Virus record (IMG/VR): IMGVR_UViG_3300020011_000226 | Location: 53,541-117,540 of that record | Direction: 5' to 3' (one strand) | DNA length: 64,000 nt | Source: a virus | Lineage: Duplodnaviria; Caudoviricetes | Shown here: positions 34,501 through 64,000 of the stretch, piece by piece | Numbering within the stretch: the first letter of the stretch is position 1 | Layout: every line of letters begins with the position of its first letter | Notes under the pieces: model-generated | What the model saw: only the letters and a program-made list of their open reading frames with translations | Databases searched by the model: none | Told to the model about the DNA's origin: nothing | Position numbers and translations under genes: made by a program

Positions 34501-35652
34501 TTACTTAGGATGAGTTAATTCAAGAGGTTGAACTTCTGCCTCTGACTGCCATTGTTTAATGAGGCTATAGTACCTGTTAAGTCTTTCTGTCTCTGTAGAC
34601 TTAGGAAGCTCTTTAAAGGTACTGGTAGCACCATCAAAGAAGAGAGGGCACTCAAACCCATTAGCACCATAATCTCTATCCTCAAGTATTTCAAGAAACC
34701 TGCAATAACCTTCTAACTTGGCTATGTCATAGTTGTTGTGTTCCTTTTTCTTGAATTTATAGGGACTATATAGCCCAATAATACAGTTAGCATCTCTTGA
34801 AGTGGTTTTACAATCCCCCAATCCATCTGTTGTTGGGTGGACTCTATCCATTTTAAGGTTCTCAATGCCTTCCTGAGACTGGGCTTGATGCTGGATGAAT
34901 ACTACAACATAGTTGAGCTGTTTTCTTAAGGTTATATTGTACTTACTCATCTTCTCAATAGCCTCTCTTTGGTCTTTACATCCTTTTTCTACTGTGAGAT
35001 TGGCAGCATTATCCAGTATAATGATTCTGTACTCATCCTCATCATCCTGAGTGTATGGCTTGATGGGGTCAACAACCCTTTTATCCTCCAAGTCACCTGT
35101 AAGCTCGTTGGTTACTTTGATGGTGGTGTAGTTCATGTGGCCATGCTCCATAGCATAATCCCTGCATTTTTTATTGATGCCTGTAGGGTTTTTATCAGTA
35201 TCATTGAAGATAACCATGTTTTCATAAGCTTGTATATACCTCTGATACCTTTCAGACTCCAATAGTTCAAAGATGCGAGGATCACAAGGATTATCCACAC
35301 TCCTTAACCTACGAGTATCAATATGAATATTATCCAGCCTGAAAAGCAGATGACACAAAAATTCATTGTACTTTTCTTTTGCCCCCATCTCTAATGAGAA
35401 ATAAAGCACCTTTACTTTCAATTCCGGGTGCTCCATCATATAAAATAAAGGCTCATAAATAAAGAGGTAGTCTGCAAGCTTTGATTTACCTACCTTCTGA
35501 TTTGCAGTTATTATTAAATACTTACCTTGCTCTACTCCTGGATAAATTCTTCTAAACCTTTCAAATGGAAACGGAAGACAATTGTACTTACCCTCAATAA
35601 CTCTTTCTCTTCTTTGTCTATTTTCTGCTTGAACCTCTTGGAATTTGCTCAT
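34501..35652 (-). CDS. dnaB: DnaB-like replicative helicase
   Basis: ANQKVGKS, YFSLEM, IILDN, IQHQ, RDAN. Confidence 0.88.
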   Translation of the reverse strand: MSKFQEVQAENRQRRERVIEGKYNCLPFPFERFRRIYPGVEQGKYLIITANQKVGKSKLADYLFIYEPLFYMMEHPELKVKVLYFSLEMGAKEKYNEFLCHLLFRLDNIHIDTRRLRSVDNPCDPRIFELLESERYQRYIQAYENMVIFNDTDKNPTGINKKCRDYAMEHGHMNYTTIKVTNELTGDLEDKRVVDPIKPYTQDDEDEYRIIILDNAANLTVEKGCKDQREAIEKMSKYNITLRKQLNYVVVFIQHQAQSQEGIENLKMDRVHPTTDGLGDCKTTSRDANCIIGLYSPYKFKKKEHNNYDIAKLEGYCRFLEILEDRDYGANGFECPLFFDGATSTFKELPKSTETERLNRYYSLIKQWQSEAEVQPLELTHPK

Positions 35653-36137
35653 AGCTCCTCTAATAGGTCATTAAGATGCTGGTGCTCTATGGATAGGAGT
35701 TCCTTGTATTTCTTATAGGTAAGAGACACACAATCTTTCTGAGGAAAATTTTGAGGACTTGTAGCTGTAATAGCTGTGCCTCCATTGCCATACAGCATAG
35801 CATAGTAGTGATGGAGAATCTTGGAGCAAAGAGTACACATGAACTTATAGAGCTTAATCTTAGCTCTTGACTCCGCAATTCTCTCTCCAACCACAGCATC
35901 AAAGGCTTCCCCTTCTGCACATTTGGACTTGCCTGTGACAATGATAAGGTTCCTACTACCAGCAAGGATGCCCTTAAACTCTACAGACGGATGATAGCTT
36001 ATCCAGACAAAGATGTGATCTGGTACAAAATGCCACCACTCAGGAAGACTTACTCTGCCAGTCAATGTTACCTCAGTCACTCGATTGTTGGAGGTCTGCA
36101 CCTTCTTGAAATTGTTTTTAAAACTTACTTTAAACAT
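35649..36137 (-). CDS. Hypothetical phage protein
   Basis: GKSKC...D...GERIAESRA motif. Confidence 0.7.
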   Translation of the reverse strand: MFKVSFKNNFKKVQTSNNRVTEVTLTGRVSLPEWWHFVPDHIFVWISYHPSVEFKGILAGSRNLIIVTGKSKCAEGEAFDAVVGERIAESRAKIKLYKFMCTLCSKILHHYYAMLYGNGGTAITATSPQNFPQKDCVSLTYKKYKELLSIEHQHLNDLLEEL

Positions 36138-36140
36138 ATT

Positions 36141-36770
36141 CTATACAATTTTTGTAGTCCAGTCATCATTATTAACCTCACCAACCTCCCCCTCACTCTC
36201 CTTATTTTCAAGGAATGTCTCAAGATCAGATACTTGATTAACCTTTACATTACCCTCATCATCCTCCTTCTTCTCATCTTTGAGGATAAAGTACTTGATA
36301 AGCCTCATGCTGGAATAGTTAGTGCGACTGTGAGCAGCAACATATCTACGGGTAGCATCCAATATCTCATCATCAGAATAGTTGCCACGCTGAGTGATGA
36401 ATCTCTTCAGGGCCTTTACCACCTCGGAGTTGTTACAGCGAAAGTAATAGGGAGTCTCACGGCCAAACCTGTCTTTCATCTTGCCCTTGGGATAGAGTTC
36501 CCTCATCTGCTGGGCAAGATTCAGCAGTCTTCCATCATCAATACCTTCTACCTTTAGGGAGTCAGCAAGAATTTCATCCAGCACGTCAGACCAATGCTGA
36601 GTAACCAGCAGGTCGTTGTTAGGCCCCCTGTTGACTATCACCTCTCTGTTCTTGAGGTTTTCCTTTACCTCCCTGATAGATTTGACAGTCCTAATAGTCA
36701 ATGTCACAAGAAACTCCTCTATTGAGAGCTTATGCTTATGGCATTGTTTTTCATCAATTGTTATCTTCAT
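36141..36770 (-). CDS. Putative replication initiator / helicase-loader-type protein
   Basis: Lies upstream of dnaB; LYPKG...ILDAT.RY...YFILK pattern. Confidence 0.5.
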   Translation of the reverse strand: MKITIDEKQCHKHKLSIEEFLVTLTIRTVKSIREVKENLKNREVIVNRGPNNDLLVTQHWSDVLDEILADSLKVEGIDDGRLLNLAQQMRELYPKGKMKDRFGRETPYYFRCNNSEVVKALKRFITQRGNYSDDEILDATRRYVAAHSRTNYSSMRLIKYFILKDEKKEDDEGNVKVNQVSDLETFLENKESEGEVGEVNNDDWTTKIV

Positions 36771-37167
36771 CTTCTGTTGTTTCTGATTTTGGTTTTGGTG
36801 TATAAAAGTCTAACCAATAGGCTACATCAGGTTGATTCCATCCACCCTTATCATAAGCAAGGGGATGCATAGTGAGGGACTCACCATCTATACAGGTATT
36901 AATCTCTTCATTCTCATTTACTCTATGAGCATAGACTACCTTGAATCCACTTGCACAAGGTACAAGGGCTATGACCTCTCTGTGTACCTCTGGCAAATCC
37001 TCACCTTGGGCATCTTTCCACAAGCTCTTTAGGACATCAGAAGCTCCTTGGATGTAGGCTTTTCTCCTTGGAAGGTTAGAGTCATACTCTCCAGTAGCTT
37101 TCTTGTTCTGCTTGTGCTTAATAGGAAACAGCTCCAAGGCTTTTTCCATAATTTGTTTTCTTGTCAT
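36754..37167 (-). CDS. Hypothetical phage protein
   Basis: Packed ORF. Confidence 0.65.
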   Translation of the reverse strand: MTRKQIMEKALELFPIKHKQNKKATGEYDSNLPRRKAYIQGASDVLKSLWKDAQGEDLPEVHREVIALVPCASGFKVVYAHRVNENEEINTCIDGESLTMHPLAYDKGGWNQPDVAYWLDFYTPKPKSETTEDEDNN

Positions 37168-37369
37168 TGTTATTTCAGTTTAATTGTTACTTTACCCATA
37201 TTGAATACAATAGAAGCCTCTTCTCCTCCTATACACTTCTCAGCAAGGTCATTGACTATTGCCTCCAGTTGGCCATAGTGCTTCATAACCAAGTCCTTGA
37301 GAGCAAAAGTACCTTTACTCTGGCTTCTATGAGGAGTAGGGTCTATAATTTTGTCTTTTCTTAAATCTA

Positions 37370-38554
37370 TCATATCTCATTTACTGAATAAATGGTTTTA
37401 ACTTTACTGAAGCCTTCAATAGCTTTTAGCACCAACTCTTCCTCACGGGTTCCTTTATAATATGGAAAGATGATAACTGGGTCTTTGTGACGAAGACTAC
37501 GGCCTATCCTCTGAGGCACTACAACATCGGAGGAAGAAAGATTGCAGAATACTGCATACTTACAATCTACAAGATTGGCATTCTCATTGAGGATATTCAC
37601 TGCTGTGATATGGTCAATCTTCTTGGCATTGAAATCTTCATATACCTTTGTAGCCAACTTGTTCTGAGAATGGATACAGTTCTTGCCAAGCTGTTCAGTC
37701 TGGGCAATAGTCTTACAGAAAGTAATAGTACGCTCCTTGTCAAGATGGTGGAGGATAAGCTTCACCCATTGCAGCTTACAGTCAGCAAGGAATTCCAATC
37801 TCTTGCCACACATATAGAGCCAAGTCTGCTTCATAGCAGGATTACCTGTCATGGTTTTCTTCTTATACCACTCTATCATCTGGTCAAGTTCCATCAGCTT
37901 TTGCTTCTGAGTGCAACGGAGGATGGCATGGACTTTCTGTTTCTTGTATTTCCAGTAGTCTTTGTACTCTCCCCGCACAGTAGGGCCTTTTGCCTTTGGA
38001 TTCAGCTCAATGGTCTCACTCAGACGGGTGTTCTCTACTTGAAGGGGGAAGAGCAGAATAGTAGGTTCTGGCAGCACTTCATCTTCAATAGCCTCTATGA
38101 TGTCACAGGAGACCACCTGAGAGTGATACCTATACTTGAAGAATTGCTTTACTGTGCGGGGAATAGTGGCACTGAGACCAATCATGTAGTCATACTTGAT
38201 AGTCTTAAGAGCCTCTAAACGCATCTCACTACCTACATGGTGGACTTCATCAAGAATGATTATATTCCACTTCTCATTACAGTGCTTGTGAAGAGACTCA
38301 TAGCACTCCATAGTAACATCACATTGAATGCCTCCCCATTTCTCTATCTCTTCTTTCCAAGTCTGCTTATGCACCCTTTTAGCTACCAACAACAACACTT
38401 TAGGTCTGTAGGACTGCCAGACAGACTCAGCTAACCAATTAGCCAATTTAAGACTAACAGCTGTTTTACCCATTCCAGTTGCAGCCTCTAAGAGTAGTAC
38501 ATTGGTTTTAGTAAGGGCTCTCTGACATGCCCCATAGATTTCATCTCTTGTCAT
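37370..38554 (-). CDS. SF2 DEAD/H-box helicase
   Basis: ATGMGKT, DEVHH, LSAT, QRIGR. Confidence 0.92.
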   Translation of the reverse strand: MTRDEIYGACQRALTKTNVLLLEAATGMGKTAVSLKLANWLAESVWQSYRPKVLLLVAKRVHKQTWKEEIEKWGGIQCDVTMECYESLHKHCNEKWNIIILDEVHHVGSEMRLEALKTIKYDYMIGLSATIPRTVKQFFKYRYHSQVVSCDIIEAIEDEVLPEPTILLFPLQVENTRLSETIELNPKAKGPTVRGEYKDYWKYKKQKVHAILRCTQKQKLMELDQMIEWYKKKTMTGNPAMKQTWLYMCGKRLEFLADCKLQWVKLILHHLDKERTITFCKTIAQTEQLGKNCIHSQNKLATKVYEDFNAKKIDHITAVNILNENANLVDCKYAVFCNLSSSDVVVPQRIGRSLRHKDPVIIFPYYKGTREEELVLKAIEGFSKVKTIYSVNEI

Positions 38555-38590
38555 AATTAACTATACCAAATTTCTGGAATACCTGTTATA

Positions 38591-38845
38591 TCATGCTGCT
38601 TCATGTGCTTCAATGCTTGAGAGATAGCTGTCAGCCTCACTGTCAAGGAATTCATTGTAGGCAATTTCCTCATCAATGGACTTGCTGATTAGCTGATTGA
38701 GTTCATAGATGCAATCCATTACACCGTCTTTATAGGAAGAAGGGTAGATTGAGGAATCTACCCTTCCTTGCCAGCTATTGACAAGCTGCTGTAAGTCACT
38801 AATGTAAATCATAAGCCACAGATAATATTCACCAGTCTGCGCCAA
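38591..38845 (-). CDS. Hypothetical protein
   Basis: Packed ORF; the start is probably at MIYISD. Confidence 0.55.
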   Translation of the reverse strand: MAQTGEYYLWLMIYISDLQQLVNSWQGRVDSSIYPSSYKDGVMDCIYELNQLISKSIDEEIAYNEFLDSEADSYLSSIEAHEAA

Positions 38846-39123
38846 ATAGATGGAGGAGTTTCTACACCCATACCATTCTTACGGTTCTTAGAGACATGGC
38901 AGGTACTGGCTGTAAAGAAGCATAGTGCTTCTGGTTTCTTAGAGAGTACTGTGTACCAATGAGACTGCACAGCTGCTGGGGTACGCCCAATCTCCTCTGC
39001 TACAATGAAGAAGCACCGAGTGAGGTTCTGTGGACGAGCCTTGATCTGTCTTAACAGGCGGTCATCTTCTGTAATTGTCCACTTCTTGTTAGCATTCTCA
39101 ACTGTTGAATTGTTGTTTGACAT
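38809..39123 (-). CDS. Myb/SANT-like HTH DNA-binding protein
   Basis: KWTxxEDxxL...AEEIGRTPAAVQSHWY. Confidence 0.7.
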   Translation of the reverse strand: MSNNNSTVENANKKWTITEDDRLLRQIKARPQNLTRCFFIVAEEIGRTPAAVQSHWYTVLSKKPEALCFFTASTCHVSKNRKNGMGVETPPSIWRRLVNIICGL

Positions 39124-39149
39124 AAATTTAAAGAATTAATTATTAATAA

Positions 39150-39616
39150 TGATGCTGCCGTAGATAGCAGCATGATGAACTGTTACAAAAACACATCCTA
39201 CCTTCACAGGCAAGATGTGATCACTAATAACTGAAAACTCGAAATACATAAAATTTAATAACAATAAAAAGTACAATACCACCGTATTGAAAAATGAACG
39301 TAATAGTATTATGAAATACGGGAATTAGCAAAAGAAAGCAGTCTGGTCTGTCTCAGATAAGACTGCTGGTGTCCTATGGTACTGATTTTTATGTATAAAC
39401 AACCCATAGGACTGAGAATTAAAAACCTAAAACTTAAACATTACTACTAAAACAAATCTATGAAAACACCGCTGTGTTAAACTTTAAATATAAGACACAT
39501 GAAGAAATTTGTCTTTGAAAAAGCTGTCTTATGTCTTCACAGATTGAGACAGCCGTATCATCCTAAAACAATCTTATTACCGAAATGACTAAAATATTTT
39601 ATTAACTTAACTTATG
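39150..39616 (-). ncRNA. Tandem array of about three small-RNA-like units (U-rich tract plus terminator hairpin)
   Basis: ORF-free. Hairpins at 39192-39219, 39337-39367 and 39523-39553 are each followed by a T-run on the minus strand and preceded by U-rich tracts. Confidence 0.55.
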
Positions 39617-39705
39617 TGGTACTGACAGGATTCCAACCTGCAACACTCTTTTGAGTGACCTCTTTAGGAGAGAGGGGCGGTCATGCAGTTACGCTTTACA
39701 GTACC
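39617..39705 (-). tRNA. tRNA-Arg(CCT), atypical (long variable arm, C19-G56)
   Basis: Acceptor GGTACTG/CAGTACC; anticodon arm CCTCT-CTCCTAA-AGAGG; variable arm CACTC-AAAA-GAGTG; T arm GCAGG-TTGGAAT-CCTGT. Confidence 0.8.
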
Positions 39706-39712
39706 TTATAGA

Positions 39713-39835
39713 CTATGCTCTTCTATAGTATTGACTTTTACCATTTGGAGCATTCTTGTTTCTACTACCAAAGTTTTCTGTTAGAGCATGACAATTAGAA
39801 CAAAGAACTTGAAGATTACTTTCTTCATTATTACG
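39713..39835 (-). pseudogene. HNH endonuclease C-terminal remnant
   Basis: Translates as RNNEESNLQVLCSNCHALTENFGSRNK...*; there is no start codon and an in-frame stop lies upstream. Confidence 0.7.
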
Positions 39836-39855
39836 GAACAGTTGTTTTTAATGAT

Positions 39856-39884
39856 GCCGCTACTATCCGCTGAGCTACAGGGCC
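39856..39884 (-). pseudogene. tRNA 5'-half fragment
   Basis: GGCCCTG-TA-GCTC-AGCGGATAG... with no 3' half; just downstream of a TATCTTTG promoter (39901-39908). Confidence 0.55.
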
Positions 39885-40093
39885 TTGATTAAACATGGTG
39901 CAAAGATACTATCCTCGCACCATTTATGGAAGAACCTTAATTTCTCATTTAGGAATTAGGTGTCAAAGTATAGAGGCGGTGATGTGTGGCTTGACTGCTT
40001 GCCTGATCACTGCTCAGGAGGATTCAGATACAAGGAAGGTGTAATTAACAAGTATTCCTCTATGCGGCTATACCTAATATTAATAACCTCCAC

Positions 40094-43000
40094 CTACACC
40101 CTCACCCCTTCTCTTTCAGCTTCTAATGCAAGTCCTTTCTCTATCAGTCCTCTATAATCAATATGATGTTCATTAAGCCAATCCAGTAATTTGGAACAAC
40201 TTTCTTCTCCAACAAAGACCGATTCATTTTTATCCCATTTTCTACTATCGGATATTATACCACCGTTGAAAATCTGAAAAAATCCTTCAAATTTATTTTC
40301 AAAATCTTTTTTCTCTTCTTCAGTAATGGAATCTATAGAGCGAAGGTATGGGACGGCACGATACTTTATGATACTATAAATTATACTCTGCGTCAAAGTC
40401 ATAGAGGTTCTACCATCTAATTCAAAATCATTTCCTACCTCTTGATTTTTCATTACTACTCCGTAAGGCAATCTAGCACAAAGATCCCTTAATAGAAGTT
40501 CCTTATCTTCTTGTGTCATAACTTTCTAATATCTTTTTTATTGTTTTTATAATATTCAATTAACCAATCAAGGTAATCAAGTCTTCCTGTAGACCAATCA
40601 CCTACTGGCCACCAATAACAAGATTCGTGATTATTATACGCTCCAAAATCAAAGACTTTTCTTCCACCAAATAATGGAAAATAATACTGAATAAATTCAA
40701 TAGAAGGATAAAGACCAGTCAATGGGCGTAAAGTACAAGCAATAGCATTACATAGACACTTATATCTACTATGATTTTCCCTTACAGCCATAAGTACATC
40801 AACCCTATAAATAGGTCGATGGAAAAGCTTCTTGAGTTTTAATTTTGTTGTTGCTTTCATAACTATTTCCTATACTTTTTATGATAATAACAATCAATCA
40901 TAATAAATGCAATCAAGAGTCCCCAATTAAACACTGGAGAAAAGAGTAAAAACAAGAAAAGCCAATCAGTAAAATCTATTCTATTACCTTTATAATAAGT
41001 CCACACTATAATAATTACAGTAGGCAATAACAATAATATTAACCATAATATTGTCATAACTATTCTTTTTATAGTCTATCAAAATCTTCTATTGTTGGTA
41101 TTTCTGGACGTTTCATTTCATCTACAAAGAAAAGAATTATTCCACAAATAAATGTTACCATTATAATAATAAATGTTTTCATAACTATTTCTTTTTAAAT
41201 ATTACTACTGAATCAACTGGAACATTACCCTCATAGGTAATTTTTAGTTCTGTCTTGCCTTGATATACATCAAGAGCTGTAGGAGTGGTTATAACTGTAT
41301 ATAATAACCACATCGACAATATAAATATGCCGATAAATATACTATTGAGTATTTTTATAGCCTTTTTTCCCATAATCTTATTCTCCTTTCATTTCTTTAC
41401 GATAATATTCTATAATTTCATCAACTTTAACTGTAAATTGCATTCCTGCTTTATCAGTATAAGTCTTAGCAGTACAAATGTTTTCTTTTAGCCACTTACA
41501 AGTTTCTTCAATCACTTCTTCTTTTACAATCTTAGCAACTTCTCTTACGTTATCAGGAGTGAGCCAAGGTTCAAAACCATAAATGTTCGCAGTAAGTGAT
41601 TTTGAGAGGTTACTACCACTCTTTGCATGTTGCTTAATAAATTCTTCTGCTTTGCTCATAGTTGTATTATTTACCCTCTTCTTTAGTACCGTATATTGTG
41701 AAACGAAGCTTATACCTACAGTCTGGGCAAATACACCGTCCACCAAGATTATAAGATTCTCTACTGTTAAAAGGCTTATTGCATTGATGGCAAATTATTC
41801 TATATTTAAGTGGTATTTTTTTATTCATAACTATTTTTTCTTAATATAGTTGTTTTTTAACAACCAAATAACCATTTCATAAGCTGCCTCTATGAGATTA
41901 TCGTAGTATTGTGTAGCATGAGCATACGTGTCAAATTGATAACCATCCCAATGTCTTAATATAGGATATTCTTTTGGATAATCTTTATATTTAATCATAG
42001 GCATAGCATCAATAAGAGCTCCGACAGACCAACAAGGGAGATAATCAAACACACGTTCCTCACCTCTTTCTGCTAAATCATCTTTAATAAAAGGAGACCC
42101 CAGAACAGTACTTCCATCATCCCTATGTAACAAATATTCCATATCAGCAGTATTAGGGTCAAGACCCAACTCTAATAATTTCTTGGACTGTTCTATAGAC
42201 GTATAATATTTCATAATGATTCTCCTTTTAATTCTCTAACTTTAGCTTCAAATAGTGCTCTTACAATAGTTCCCTTTCCCAGTGCTGCTATAAGAGGTTC
42301 AAACTCTTTAAGCATAGCATAAGCACCATCTTCAAAATTTGTTTGTAATCTACATGCTTTAGCGGCATTAATTGCTGCCATTTCTTTTATAGTCATAGTT
42401 ACTCTCCTTTAAGTTGTTGTTCTTTCTGCCACCGAGCACCTGCCTTGAAAGCAATAGCAATATCATCTTCCCAGTCATCACCGCCATTGCCGTTATCATT
42501 TGATGTGTAGTCGGTGGCATACTGCCTTGATACTTCCTCCAAGTTCTCACTTGCAGGCTCTTCGGGAAGAGAATTGATGAATCTTAAAATATCATCTAAT
42601 GCCATATCTTGCCCACATTTAACATCTAATTCATATTGAGCATAGTCTTTGTCATCAGATGGCTTATAGACTTTTTTCAGCCTTGCAATCTCAACTAAAA
42701 TCTTATCTTTAATATTCATAGTTACTCTCCTTTAAGTTGTTTTAAATCATTATAAAGAGATTTCAACAATTTGTTATGAGGATAATATTCTTGTACAAAC
42801 ATACCCAATGCTTCAACTTGTTCTTCACTTGGTTTCCAATGAGACTGAGGACGAAGGGATTTGAGCCAATCAACGCACCTATCTCTGTCAATTTGCACAC
42901 AAAATCCTGCACGTAAAGCACTATCTATAATATCCTTAGATAGTCTGATACATTTCTCATCCTCTTCACTCCATTCAGCAGACTTCTGTTCAAACATTCT

Positions 43001-44760
43001 ACGAAAGCTGTTATCTTGAAGATTCTTTTTAATTTGCTCTTTATCCACAACTTTCTTCAATTCTTTATTATCAGTATCCCATCTTCGTACATATTTTGAA
43101 ATTTTTGGAAGATATGTATTAAGAAAATCAATAATATTAACTCCAGTAGCTTTACCATTTTCTAAAATTTTGTAAGGAAATAATAAACCCTCAGAAACTC
43201 CATCTTTAAGTTCACTTATTTCTTTATAACCTTCCTTACGTTTGGCATTTATTCTACTTTGAAGTTCGTTAACATTCTTCTTAGTGATAGTAATATGCTT
43301 TGTATGAAGATTTCTTCCAACAAGACCATATTGAATATCTATATATTTTATAGGGCCATCAGGAGAATCTTGACTTATAATTTCTTTAGCAGACCATACG
43401 AGAGGTTTGTCATTACTAGACCTTTTATAAAGTGTTATCATAATTCTATTATATTTAAAATAATACTTTTATCATTTTCTGCCTTAAAACATTCAAAAGC
43501 TCCTTTTTTAGAAAAAGATTAATAATACGTATTACCGTATTTATTCGGAGGAATAAAATATACTATTATATATTCATTCATATTCTTTCTAATTTAATTT
43601 CAACTTTAATAGGCTCATCTCTATAACAAAGATTTTTAAATTCAGGAAATTCTTCATCTTTAAGTTCCATGTAATCCTCACTCATCCAAACTTTAAGCCT
43701 ATCATTATTTTCTGGAATATCTCTATGAAACCAAAGAGAACCATCTGCATCTCTAGCTACATATCCAATCATAACTTACTCTTTCTTTAATTTTTTACAT
43801 TCATTATAATAACCAATACTAACTTTAGGATTATCTTCACATTCTTCACAAAGAAAAGAATCGCGAAGAGGAACATTATACTTTTTACATTTCATGATTT
43901 AATCTTTAAAACCTCTGTCATCTATAATATCTAATTCTTTTAATAAAATATTATAAGACTTATCAGATAATTTACTGCCATAAATACCATCTCTTATATC
44001 AGCGTTAGTCCAAATATAATGAGAAGACTTTTCATCACTTATTAAAGCTATATTATGAATAGGAATAATAGTTCCATTTTCACTTCTAATACATTTAATT
44101 TTATCCATGATTTAATCTTTCTTAGGAGGTTTAATTTTAAAAGCTCATCCTCACTCTCTGCAAGTTGTTGAAATACAGCAAGTAGATATGATTTTCCAAT
44201 AGAACTTGCATTAGGATTATTATGCCATTCTTTTGCTCTTTCAAGAGCTTTGTCATAAGCTTTTGCTTTTTGCTCTGTTGTAAGTTCTTTCATAATTGTT
44301 TATTATTTATCTAAGTCGATAACTTTTTTATCCCAATGATATTTTAAGAAATACTCCAAGTGAATAAACCTACCCATAATTATTGGTTCTTCGCTGTAAG
44401 ACCAATCCATAGTCATAAGTGTTTCTCCACTTTCCGTGTCAATGATTGCATATATAAAGCATAATTCGCCATTGTTCATGTCCAACAACTTTTGTAGGTC
44501 TTTGGATTTATATAAAGTCATGCAATGGTTTTTACCATGTGAAGCATCAAAAAGAAACGCTTTTGCTTTTTCTTTATCCATAATCACAACATTTTACGTT
44601 CGTGTAATTTTAGTACCATCTCATAGCAAGCATCAATAGGGTTGCTTGTCTTAAATATTTCAGTACTTAGACTTTCTCTTGCGCCTACATAATACCTATC
44701 AGCATAATACATGATGCCGTACTTTTTATAAGCTTTCTTACGTAGTTTCTTTAATAATTT
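40094..44760 (-). other. AT-rich cluster of small accessory phage genes (e.g. 40094-40519, 40516-40860, 41831-42214, 42399-42719, 42722-43441, 43578-43772, 44303-44587)
   Basis: Densely packed short minus-strand ORFs of types common in Bacteroidota phages; visibly higher AT than the replication block. Confidence 0.7.
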
Positions 44761-44784
44761 TGTTTATTAAAGATGAAATAAAAA

Positions 44785-45438
44785 AGGATGCGGCAGACCT
44801 CTGACCTTATTGGAACTCTTGCAAGGTAGCATTTTACTAAGGCTCAGCATCTTATGCTGGGGTTTTCAACATGCTAAATTCCAATTTTTACGGTTTCTTC
44901 TGTAAGGGCAGATAGTAAGCAGAAATACCACGTCTGGTTATGCTCCAGCCATGCAAGATACATGCGCTGTTTTAACTATTGCCATCTTTGGTCTCACAAG
45001 AAAACAATCTTCAACAACCCAAATTACCAATTGCTGATAAAGTGCTCCGTTTTTCCATTGTATTCACCATTTACTATCTGTGGAACTCTTTGGAATTACC
45101 CACATACCCTCATGGATATAGCACTTAAAATGTTTTCTCTCGGTTAAAAGTCTCTATACCTTATTGTTTCAGTACGACTACTTACTTTTCTCGGAAAATG
45201 GCTCAACATTGAGAATACTCAAAGTCCACGTTCCTACTTAATGTTTTTCTACTATCCTTCTCTTTGTAAGTGAAAGACTTTTTCCCGATTTTAGAAGATT
45301 CACAAGAAGTATCGTCTGGAGGATGTCTTTACATGCATCAATATAGGCTATTTGCCACCTCCTCCGTCCTTTAGCATCTGCAACTCTTCTTGCTTTTTCC
45401 GACACAGGATTTCTGCCTGTGCCATATTACCGCATCCT
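44785..45438 (-). ncRNA. Large ornate structured RNA (~654 nt), ROOL-like candidate
   Basis: No credible ORF. An 11-bp terminal helix AGGAUGCGGUA/UGCCGCAUCCU is followed by a U-run. Many nested helices and two perfect pseudoknot pairings. Confidence 0.75.
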
Positions 45439-62857: not shown

Positions 62858-62935
62858 TAATTAGTTGTAATCATACAATAGATTTGTTTTTCATTGATCA
62901 TTTTTTCTCCCGTCTTTGTGAAAAGGTGGGAGTTT

Positions 62936-64000
62936 TTATATATCCAAACTGGCTATGGCATCCACCACAGTCTCATCAAGCAGTTTGGCATACACTTGCT
63001 CAGTTATCTTGGTAGATGAGTGTCCGCATATCTTCGAGACTATCTGCATGGGAACCCCCTCATTTAATAATAAGGTAGCACCTGTATGCCTTGCCCAGTG
63101 AGTAGAGAGAGGCTTGTCTATCCCAGCAGCCTGTGCTACCACTTTAAGGTACTCATTGTATTTCACATTGCTTATGATGGGCAGCTTTCCTTCATACTTA
63201 TGCAGGATGTCCAAGGCTGGGGATAGCAGGGGAATGGTAAAGGTCATATTGGTCTTATGTCTATTACCCACATACACACTCATGCCCTTCACCTCCTGAA
63301 TCATCCTACTGTTAAAGTCCCTCAGGTCTGAGTAGCTGAGGCAGGTGTAGGTCTGGAAAACAAAGACATCCCTGACTCTGCTGATACATTCTGTGGGCAT
63401 AGGCAGGGTTTTGAGCCTCCTAAATTCCTCTGGAGTCAGACACCTTCTAATACCATTAGTAGATTTATCCTTGTCTATATTCACCCATCTGTAGGGGTTC
63501 TTTTTCATGTATCCTGCATCTATGGCATCCAGTATGAAACTGTTTAGGAATCTGTGGTAATTATTCCATTTACTGTAGGGCTTCATTCCTGTATCAGCCA
63601 AATACTTATCGTAGGAGATGATACTTCTCTCATTAATGTCTTCAAAGCTCTTGATTTTGCCCCACTTAGTAAACAGTCTGATGAATCTGTTATACCTTTC
63701 CTGACTGTCTGGCTTCTTACCATATTTCCTCACTACAGCTCTTTGATTACAGAACTCCAAGAAACTGATTTTAGGTTGATTCATTTTTTCCAGCTCTTCA
63801 GGAATAGTATTAATATCAACCTCCCCCTCCTGCATCATCCTGAGTATAATCTGCCTGACATTGGAAAGCATGGTATCCAGAGTCTGACTAATCGGCATGA
63901 TGTCTGGACAGTTGACGATCTTCCCGTTCTTCCACTGAGTAGAGTAGAGCTTGATACCAGTTGAGATAATCTTCTGTTTGTAGTTATAGGTGATTCTCAT
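62936..64000 (-). CDS. Tyrosine recombinase/integrase (Bacteroidota Arm-SAM-Int type), probably 5'-truncated by the window
   Basis: RIT...STGI arm domain, TCLSYSDL box I, HWARHT, GH...T..VY. Confidence 0.9.
   Translation of the reverse strand: MRITYNYKQKIISTGIKLYSTQWKNGKIVNCPDIMPISQTLDTMLSNVRQIILRMMQEGEVDINTIPEELEKMNQPKISFLEFCNQRAVVRKYGKKPDSQERYNRFIRLFTKWGKIKSFEDINERSIISYDKYLADTGMKPYSKWNNYHRFLNSFILDAIDAGYMKKNPYRWVNIDKDKSTNGIRRCLTPEEFRRLKTLPMPTECISRVRDVFVFQTYTCLSYSDLRDFNSRMIQEVKGMSVYVGNRHKTNMTFTIPLLSPALDILHKYEGKLPIISNVKYNEYLKVVAQAAGIDKPLSTHWARHTGATLLLNEGVPMQIVSKICGHSSTKITEQVYAKLLDETVVDAIASLDI

Follow-up and report, generated by a model that had tools for sequence, protein, structure and literature searches.

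The U-rich stretch and its features

We analysed 64,000 nucleotides (nt) of viral DNA, hereafter the window, which corresponds to bases 53541-117540 of the 117,540-bp virus record IMGVR_UViG_3300020011_000226, classed as a provirus by IMG/VR. The virus is a crAss-like phage encoding a crAss-type portal, a family A DNA polymerase, a primase and an SF2 helicase that is 41-44% identical to the helicases of crAss001, IAS virus and relatives. The subject of this study is a U-rich non-coding stretch at 39124-39616 on the minus strand, which is also the sense of all genes flanking it. The stretch follows a transfer RNA (tRNA)-like gene within a gene-free gap (39124-40093) that has small open reading frames (ORFs) of low G+C content on one side and the replication module on the other. 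Its central tract, unit 2, is homologous to a U-rich domain of a Prevotella RNA gene, and copies of this domain occur in many other phages. A preliminary description of the window had presented the region as an ORF-free tandem array of small RNA (sRNA) candidates. The absence of genes holds for 39124-39616 (minus strand), where only short ORFs crossing the hairpins were found and none is credible. The features are listed below in the sense of transcription, with z values that compare folding energies with those of shuffled sequences.

39617-39705 (-): tRNA-Arg(CCU)-like gene, D arm atypical, variable arm long; cloverleaf fold z -2.95, synteny
39554-39616 (-): unit 1 tract, the tRNA trailer; 39562-39573 exactly reproduces 12 nt from the start of the U-rich block of the host RNA
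39518-39553 (-): terminator T1 (hairpin 39523-39553), GUGA loop and five-T run; -14.7 kcal/mol, z -3.1
39419-39461 (-): unit 2 tract, in which the Prevotella RNA's invariant U-rich block recurs in diverged form; host-RNA profile match and local alignments
39371-39412 (-): additional long-looped hairpin (9 bp) that separates the core copy in unit 2 from T2; -15.3 kcal/mol, z -3.3
39330-39367 (-): terminator T2 (hairpin 39337-39367), GAGA/AGA apex and T-rich run; -15.2 kcal/mol, z -4.3
39220-39327 (-): unit 3 tract, a U-rich spacer; one block aligns with the post-tRNA spacer of the relative L004, score 32 (best shuffle 31)
39187-39219 (-): terminator T3 (hairpin 39192-39219), 12-bp hairpin with GUGA loop and five-T run; -18.1 kcal/mol, z -5.3

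A conserved RNA gene of Prevotella shares the block of unit 2

A search pattern built from the best-conserved words of unit 2 matched at least 120 contigs of bacterial genomes. Among the matches listed, all carriers are Prevotella, Prevotellaceae or Xylanibacter (including Xylanibacter ruminicola) except for one metagenome-assembled genome labelled only Bacteroidales, and most come from the rumen. The matching words are part of a stand-alone RNA gene of ~280 nt (median about 282), exemplified by L188:1141-1424 (+). About 90 further host loci of the gene are found among L114-L233. A promoter of the Bacteroidota consensus, TTG-N19-21-TAnnTTTG followed by CA, sits 20-80 nt upstream (92 distinct copies among the matches listed). 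Towards its 5' end, the RNA has a 58-nt U-rich block (L188:1148-1209), which is identical in 92 distinct copies among the matches listed. Behind the block come a hairpin domain capped by GYGA, variable hairpins capped by GNRA, another invariant block (L188:1357-1380) and then a terminator rich in G+C that carries 6-11 T. RNAalifold predicts 57 base pairs for the host RNA, with compensatory changes in 21 of them. The invariant blocks are essentially unpaired or form only invariant A-U and G-U pairs in the same prediction. The RNA is single-copy in five cultured genomes, and ispF adjoins the gene in all five loci checked.

The host element is thus an RNA gene with its own promoter, covariation and terminator. 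It constitutes an unannotated conserved RNA family that is absent from Rfam. A search of the host locus against Rfam retrieved only an unrelated tRNA at the gathering score, and matches at chance level at E values up to 10. No match to the block sequence was found in the literature searched.

Compared against the entire 117.5-kb record, a profile of the whole host RNA yielded a single significant match at 39453-39420 (-), with an E value of 0.0011 after composition correction. The match covers the first block of the host RNA only. The promoter, the GYGA hairpin domain, the second block and the G+C-rich terminator of the host RNA have no match in unit 2. Because the profile matches nothing else in the record and phage copies carry the first block only, the window element is a one-domain copy rather than a full member of the family. 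Local alignment of 39490-39400 with crAss-like relatives gave scores of 55 for L036 (best shuffle 33) and 48 for L051 (best shuffle 45). Unit 2 is unpaired in the centroid fold of the window unit, as is the block in the units of L109 and L036. Measured from the core copy, T2 starts 52 nt downstream and the tRNA-like gene is located 156 nt upstream. Unit 2 thereby shows the arrangement of the phage module, in which a hairpin with a T-run follows the block within ~70 nt, often behind a tRNA or transfer-messenger RNA (tmRNA) gene.

The other two tracts relate less directly to the host RNA. The 12-mer of unit 1 (39562-39573) occurs only once in the 64-kb window, and the first 25 nt behind the tRNA-like gene align with L036. 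A derivation of unit 3 from the 3' end of the host block was rejected, since the likeness is at chance level. A further piece resembling the block lies at 62877-62932 (+) in the window, where the first 13-14 nt of the block occur in the same variant as at 39461-39448. A terminator capped by GUGA follows this piece after 16 nt, beside the integrase gene. The locus may be a truncated second copy of the module.

Copies of the block in other phages

The U-rich block pattern is present in 33 viral contigs. In these copies, 32-50 nt are exactly preserved between unrelated flanks, and the G+C content of the loci ranges from 0.32 to 0.58. A stable hairpin with a T-run is located 5-69 nt downstream of the block in 23 of 24 distinct phage copies. 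Strict GNRA loops cap 13 of these hairpins, and about five more have the same letters in a loop of 5 or 3 nt. Among the other intergenic terminators of the window phage, GNRA loops cap 3 of about 21. Ordinary terminators may also carry GNRA caps, but the GNRA apex is enriched after this block (13/24 strictly, ~18/24 loosely). The more common GNRA apex after the block, together with the covarying GYGA hairpin that follows the block in the host RNA, suggests that the hairpin may be a part of the module and not a stop signal alone.

Several phage copies are linked to tRNA or tmRNA genes. The block lies 41-74 nt behind a tRNA-Lys (L084), a tmRNA (L100), a tRNA-Arg(CCT) (L107) and a tRNA-Arg(TCT) (L108), each on the same strand. 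The phage-encoded tmRNA gene is located at L100:2481-2861 (-), with the block 41 nt behind it and then a terminator. In L104, the block is found ~100 nt after a portal gene whose product is 49% identical. Phages appear to have captured the block repeatedly, with linkage to tRNA genes. A word of four to seven T followed by CAT lies just 5' of the block in many phage copies and is absent from the host gene. It is found at 39459-39467 (-) in the window and in L082, L084, L085, L096, L098, L112 and L113. The word could be part of a promoter or mark the 5' end of an RNA.

The same site in crAss-like relatives

Protein-guided searches recovered relatives of the window phage, seven of which carry the pair of a Myb-like gene and a helicase gene (L002, L004, L005, L036, L043, L051 and, identified later, L109). 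The helicases of the seven are 55-76% identical to that of the window phage at the amino acid level. All seven share a common plan, consisting of a U-rich spacer of 80-165 nt, one terminator with a GNRA-type apex and T-run, and the Myb gene. Upstream of the spacer, L002 and L036 have a host-type -7 box and a tRNA (usually Arg-CCT), L004 and L043 have a tRNA, L051 has a tRNA-like stretch and L005 has an ORF. The arrangement of tRNA and Myb gene in the window is absent from crAss001 and bajarodcaudo virus.

Parts of all three window tracts correspond to blocks of the single spacer of relatives, as established by local alignment with shuffled controls. This approach was used because expansions made a global MAFFT alignment of the spacers uninformative. 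Relatives have one spacer and one terminator, and the three window units are therefore no tandem array of like sRNA genes, contrary to how the region was initially described. The window version looks like the single spacer of relatives in an enlarged form that two additional terminators break up.

The closest relative, L109 (helicase 76%), carries an exact host-type block and one terminator capped by GAGA right before the Myb gene. In L107, a tRNA-Arg(CCT) lies 74 nt upstream of the block, and the contig ends with the tRNA-Arg(CCT) and the block. L107 is apparently the partner contig of L109. The two contigs originate from the same sample, seemingly represent one crAss-like phage and both end exactly at the U-rich block. 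Assemblies may break at the block because it is common to host and other phage DNA. A minimal core of 32 nt (L188:1172-1203) is exact in L109 and L107 and differs at about two positions in L036. The window copy does not keep the core exactly and differs at three positions.

Hairpins and terminators

The three main hairpins with T-runs that had been noted at 39523-53, 39337-67 and 39192-219 were all recovered by folding against shuffled sequences. T1, T2 and T3 show the pattern of intrinsic (Rho-independent) terminators, namely a stable stem-loop containing G+C followed by a U-run. They share with known Rho-independent terminators of the GNRA tetraloop type both their build (stem, GNRA-type apex, T-run) and their place behind a gene in the sense of transcription. 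A look-up of sequencing runs for 35001-45000 of the window returned no RNA run, the single match being the DNA sample that is its probable source. T3 is the counterpart of the single terminator preceding the Myb gene in relatives, where a GNRA-capped terminator is present in seven of seven. Its apex is shared with terminators of L093 and L104. T2 is ~80% identical to a hairpin in L051 that precedes the tRNA-like gene and has no T-run. Searching viral contigs for the exact T2-type hairpin pattern gave no match.

Two additional hairpins had been proposed within the stretch. The one at 39371-412 is a stable fold (z -3.3) with nothing like it seen in relatives, and the one at 39282-321 is at chance level (z -0.8). 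A hairpin had also been described as recurring elsewhere in the window. The site at 58410-37 is indeed a strong hairpin (-15.2 kcal/mol), but 48006-19 is a weak 6-bp stem without a T-run (z -1.3). The hairpins at 39371-412, 39282-321, 39152-173 and 48006-19 do not have the form of intrinsic terminators, as they lack a T-run or fold weakly.

A first scan for perfect GNRA hairpins in a fixed window was too strict and returned 3 matches. The genome-wide scan detected ~25 intergenic sites with a hairpin and T-run, with varied loops, in ~11.8 kb of intergenic DNA. This density predicts about one site in 0.47 kb, and the three terminators of the stretch are thus only a mild excess.

Complementarity to start regions of host genes

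The preliminary description interpreted the tracts as three parallel trans-acting antisense sRNAs that silence host mRNAs, such as defence or receptor genes, through A-rich initiation regions. Some properties of the stretch are compatible with such a mechanism. The tracts are U-rich, predicted to be single-stranded and followed by terminators, and the host RNA from which unit 2 stems has an invariant block that might serve as a long seed. GibS of Bacteroides reportedly pairs with start regions. However, the enrichment expected from such targeting did not appear. When the host block and units 1-3 were paired with 120 of 372 Prevotella start windows, duplex energies were the same as for shuffled tracts (z -0.9 to +0.3) in a crude comparison with approximate gene starts and the true host not identified. 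Pairing with inner coding windows was at least as favourable. In five Prevotella genomes, an equally crude comparison found sequences nearly complementary to the most conserved 18 nt no more often than those of a reversed control. Furthermore, the units are not paralogues of each other, and relatives have one unit.

The opposite strand had been read as A-rich start regions with ATG codons. Frames opening from the plus-strand ATGs span only 3-6 codons, as expected from base composition, and any U-rich tract yields an A-rich complement. The ATG in question is part of the T-run/CAT word that recurs 5' of the block in many phage copies. Coding on the opposite strand was rejected as well, because frames from the ATG 5' of the block encode 3-48 aa (one of 88) and differ between close relatives. 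We consider three antisense sRNAs very improbable. The proposal of an sRNA cassette survives in a different form, since the phage carries in unit 2 a U-rich domain copied from a host sRNA and this domain lies between a tRNA or tmRNA gene and a terminator in many phages, while antisense targeting, of defence or receptor genes in particular, finds no support and the array does not stand.

A possible but unlikely site acting at the DNA level

The block could alternatively act as DNA, either as a phage attachment site (attP) matching a bacterial site (attB) in the host RNA gene, or as a site for the Myb-like or replication proteins. Exact identity between many phages and a single-copy host gene resembles the core of an attachment site. 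The record has provirus status in IMG/VR and contains a tyrosine integrase gene, and the AT-rich tract borders both the gene of a DNA-binding protein and the replication module. The position of the block argues against these possibilities. The integrase gene (window 62936-64000) terminates the record and is 23 kb away from the block, and host-like DNA of 53% G+C with a degenerate 3' piece of a tRNA is found at the opposite end. With the integrase at one end of the record and host-like DNA at the other, the prophage junctions are not at the block. The block occurs once in the record. Three of five complete carrier genomes have no tyrosine integrase, and the integrase is 3.5 kb and >36 kb away in the other two; serine recombinases were not searched. 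As an attP of this phage, the block was rejected given its distance from integrase and junctions. The orientation of the block is fixed relative to upstream tRNAs and downstream terminators, which is a signature of an RNA-level element. Overall, a DNA-level element is highly unlikely, and the stretch 39124-39616 very probably carries information at the level of RNA.

The record ends also bear on the lifestyle of the phage. The tyrosine integrase gene (window 62936-64000, -) forms one end of the record. At the opposite end (G000:C1:1-520), there is ~400 nt of host-like coding DNA with 53% G+C compared to 39% for the phage, as well as a degenerate piece resembling a tRNA 3' end. The phage would thereby be integrated as a provirus, an uncommon state among crAss-like phages.

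A proposed tRNA trailer with a phage mimic of a host RNA domain

Our preferred explanation, held with slightly more belief than doubt, is that the stretch represents the non-coding trailer of a tRNA unit carrying a phage mimic of a host sRNA domain, which would have been expanded, diverged and cut up by terminators. Several observations weigh against this explanation. Unit 2 is worn compared to the host consensus, with 2 substitutions and 6 missing bases over ~40 nt, and the E value of its profile match is just 0.0011. T1 separates the tRNA promoter from the main copy in unit 2, which would hence need read-through or a promoter of its own. The local promoter candidates are imperfect and consist of a TAnnTTTG match inside the element (39460-39453) and a sigma-70-like match (39515-39487). 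Reading the former as a promoter is weakened by the presence of the same letters inside the transcribed host RNA and the absence of the box from L036 and L051. Exact copies of the host RNA were found in 3 of 301 genomes sampled from the GTDB family of the host, which suggests that the RNA is confined to a subclade of Prevotella; the count is restricted to the exact pattern and says nothing against diverged forms. The duplex and near-complement comparisons described above point in the same direction.

A simpler explanation would be that the stretch serves termination only. Stacked ordinary terminators would keep tRNA-unit transcripts of the host polymerase out of the replication module, and the U-rich copy would be a decaying relic without function. 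All three main hairpins fit the terminator pattern in the right orientation, and their density is only mildly raised over that of the intergenic DNA. GNRA loops also cap other terminators of the phage (58410-37, 62907-32). The window copy is diverged whereas the closest relative keeps the exact block, and the relics of an HNH endonuclease gene and a tRNA fragment nearby show that the gap collects debris. Yet termination does not require the ~150-190 nt of U-rich sequence between the terminators. The spacer blocks remain recognizable across relatives at 55-76% protein identity, and the block is under obvious constraint in 33 other viral contigs with G+C contents of 0.32-0.58. A pure stack of terminators is possible for this worn copy, but as an account of the whole stretch we regard it as unlikely while still deserving weight.

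Under the preferred explanation of a tRNA trailer with a mimic, the stretch would belong to a tRNA unit driven by a host-type promoter in a crAss-like (pro)phage of Prevotella. The ancestral unit was likely organized as in relatives, with promoter, tRNA-Arg(CCT), U-rich domain and one GNRA-capped intrinsic terminator ahead of the Myb-like and replication genes. In the window, expansion would have produced the 12-nt partial copy and T1 behind the tRNA, then the diverged main copy with the extra hairpin and T2, and finally the third spacer with the ancestral T3. In the most probable mechanism, the host RNA polymerase would transcribe the tract from the tRNA promoter and perhaps also from a local start. 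Processing of the tRNA end together with the terminators could then release short U-rich RNAs of ~100-140 nt. Displaying the same sequence as the host RNA, such RNAs might act on the partners of the host RNA or titrate them.

We suggest, tentatively and with more doubt than conviction, a broader scenario. Prevotella phages of several kinds, including crAss-like phages, may have repeatedly captured only the 58-nt U-rich front end of the host sRNA, which does not vary across at least 90 species-level genomes, and placed it as a mini-gene downstream of tRNA or tmRNA genes. During infection, the mini-gene could take over or neutralize the regulon or a protein partner of the host RNA. The window would then contain an expanded and partly duplicated capture.

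Relation to known systems and significance

Phages and prophages are known to encode sRNAs that copy or counter riboregulators of the host, including AgvB and AsxR of prophages in enterohaemorrhagic Escherichia coli (EHEC), DicF, the pseudo-ToxI of phage TE and RNA anti-CRISPRs that copy CRISPR repeats. The element described here resembles such mimics (AgvB and others) in being a non-coding gene of a mobile element with an intrinsic terminator, which copies part of a host RNA and could titrate its partners. It differs in that the copied RNA is an undescribed core-genome RNA of Prevotella, that only the U-rich 5' block is copied, that the copy is often a trailer of a tRNA or tmRNA and that the system is known here from sequence. 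sRNAs linked to tRNAs can also be released from external transcribed spacers, as for 3'ETS-leuZ of E. coli. Similarly to 3'ETS-leuZ, the window has an RNA segment between a tRNA 3' end and the terminator of the operon, and processing would release the segment. The segment here, though, is a horizontally acquired copy of a domain of another gene, and T1 parts most of it from the tRNA.

The crAss-like phage phi14:2 provides a setting for comparison. Host-type promoters often precede its tRNA genes, and intergenic stretches of its early region yield abundant non-coding RNAs in RNA sequencing (RNA-seq) (bioRxiv 10.1101/2020.03.07.982082). Both phages are crAss-like and share non-coding stretches among early or replication genes and host-type promoters before tRNA genes. 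The RNAs of phi14:2 were seen by RNA-seq, whereas the window element is deduced from its letters and has a host homologue. On the host side, sRNAs of Segatella (Prevotella) copri have been mapped, including SrcF (272 nt) and the conserved ScnR157 (bioRxiv 10.1101/2024.04.05.588293). According to the authors, these sRNAs show little conservation outside the S. copri complex, and the bacteria are without all known sRNA chaperones (bioRxiv 10.1101/2024.04.05.588293). The S. copri sRNAs are likewise stand-alone Prevotellaceae RNAs (90-300 nt) with TAnnTTT-type promoters and terminators, and SrcF is near the size of the host RNA. In contrast, the host RNA studied here is mostly found in rumen Prevotella and Xylanibacter. 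A link of the host RNA to SrcF or ScnR157 was considered, but the paper and its supplements (bioRxiv 10.1101/2024.04.05.588293) contain no sequence matching the block.

Prevotella dominates the rumen and many human gut communities, and almost nothing is known of its riboregulation. A 58-nt block that is unvarying across ~90 species (among the matches listed) and copied by unrelated phages indicates unusually strong constraint. The block offers an experimental handle in the form of one host gene and one short phage RNA. If mimicry proves true, the element would be the first RNA-level device for host take-over described for crAss-like phages, and tRNA islands of phages would have a new way to carry regulatory cargo. 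If mimicry proves false, the analysis still adds an unannotated conserved RNA family to Prevotella and may explain assembly breaks at the block.

The tRNA region and neighbouring features

The gap contains further features on both sides of the stretch, listed here from upstream to downstream in the sense of transcription.

39899-39908 (-): host-type (Bacteroidota) -7 box TAnnTTTG followed by CA, ahead of the tRNA region; read from sequence
39841-39884 (-): fragment resembling a tRNA 5' half, acceptor and D arm only; aligns with 5' halves of tRNAs of relatives, no matching 3' half
39755-39818 (-): relic of a gene for an HNH homing endonuclease; 64 nt share 83% identity with the HNH endonuclease gene that neighbours tRNA-Leu in Salmonella phage Arash
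39152-39173 (-): 8-bp hairpin without a T-run, just before the Myb-like gene; z -5.0, a similar one at the same place in L004
38809-39123 (-): gene of a Myb-like DNA-binding protein, 104 aa; Pfam PF13921 and PF00249, opens the replication module

An identical -7 box precedes the canonical tRNA-Arg(CCT) in L002 and L036. Boxes of the TAnnTTTG type are 3.5-fold enriched in the intergenic DNA of the phage and lie 25-45 nt ahead of genes. The minimum free energy fold of the tRNA-Arg(CCU)-like gene (39617-39705) is a cloverleaf with a 7-bp acceptor stem, an anticodon arm with a CCU anticodon, a T arm and an extra 5-bp variable arm. Its D arm consists of a 3-bp stem and a 12-nt loop, and its T loop reads TTGGAAT. 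Canonical tRNA-Arg(CCT) genes in L002, L004, L036 and L107 are syntenic with the gene and can be aligned to it, which supports orthology. An 11-nt insertion, which forms the long variable arm, sets it apart from these canonical genes. The earlier assignment as tRNA-Arg(CCT) therefore agrees with fold, anticodon and synteny, but ARAGORN called no tRNA at 39617-39705, nor did Rfam at E values up to 5. In the HNH relic (39755-39818), no frame of at least 30 aa is open on the minus strand. The segment 39755-39884 looks like a tRNA gene destroyed by the insertion of a homing endonuclease gene that later decayed.

Rfam 15 returned nothing meaningful for 38000-41000 of the window at E values up to 5. 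Searching the region against phages with blastn retrieved the HNH relic as the sole match. The Myb-like gene is followed by the helicase gene and then by a gene for a DnaB-like helicase. Orthologues of the Myb-like gene were found in eight relatives. No host-type -7 box was seen before the Myb-like gene, which is in keeping with the replication module being transcribed in a different way, as are the early genes of phi14:2. The hairpin at 39152-39173 is additional to those previously described in the stretch. After the last terminator, five or six T followed by GTRAYARTTC are conserved (window 39152-39191 (-); L002:2960-2990; L004:2333-2362; L036:583-600).

A search of the gap against six relatives with blastn gave nothing useful beyond a purine-rich run matching L005. 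This run, with an AT palindrome after it, lies upstream of the tRNA unit at ~40065-40095 (-) and produced the sole blastn match between the gap and any relative. The same combination is found in four relatives (L002:2625-2660; L005:2470-2505; L051:2445-2480; L043:2495-2525).

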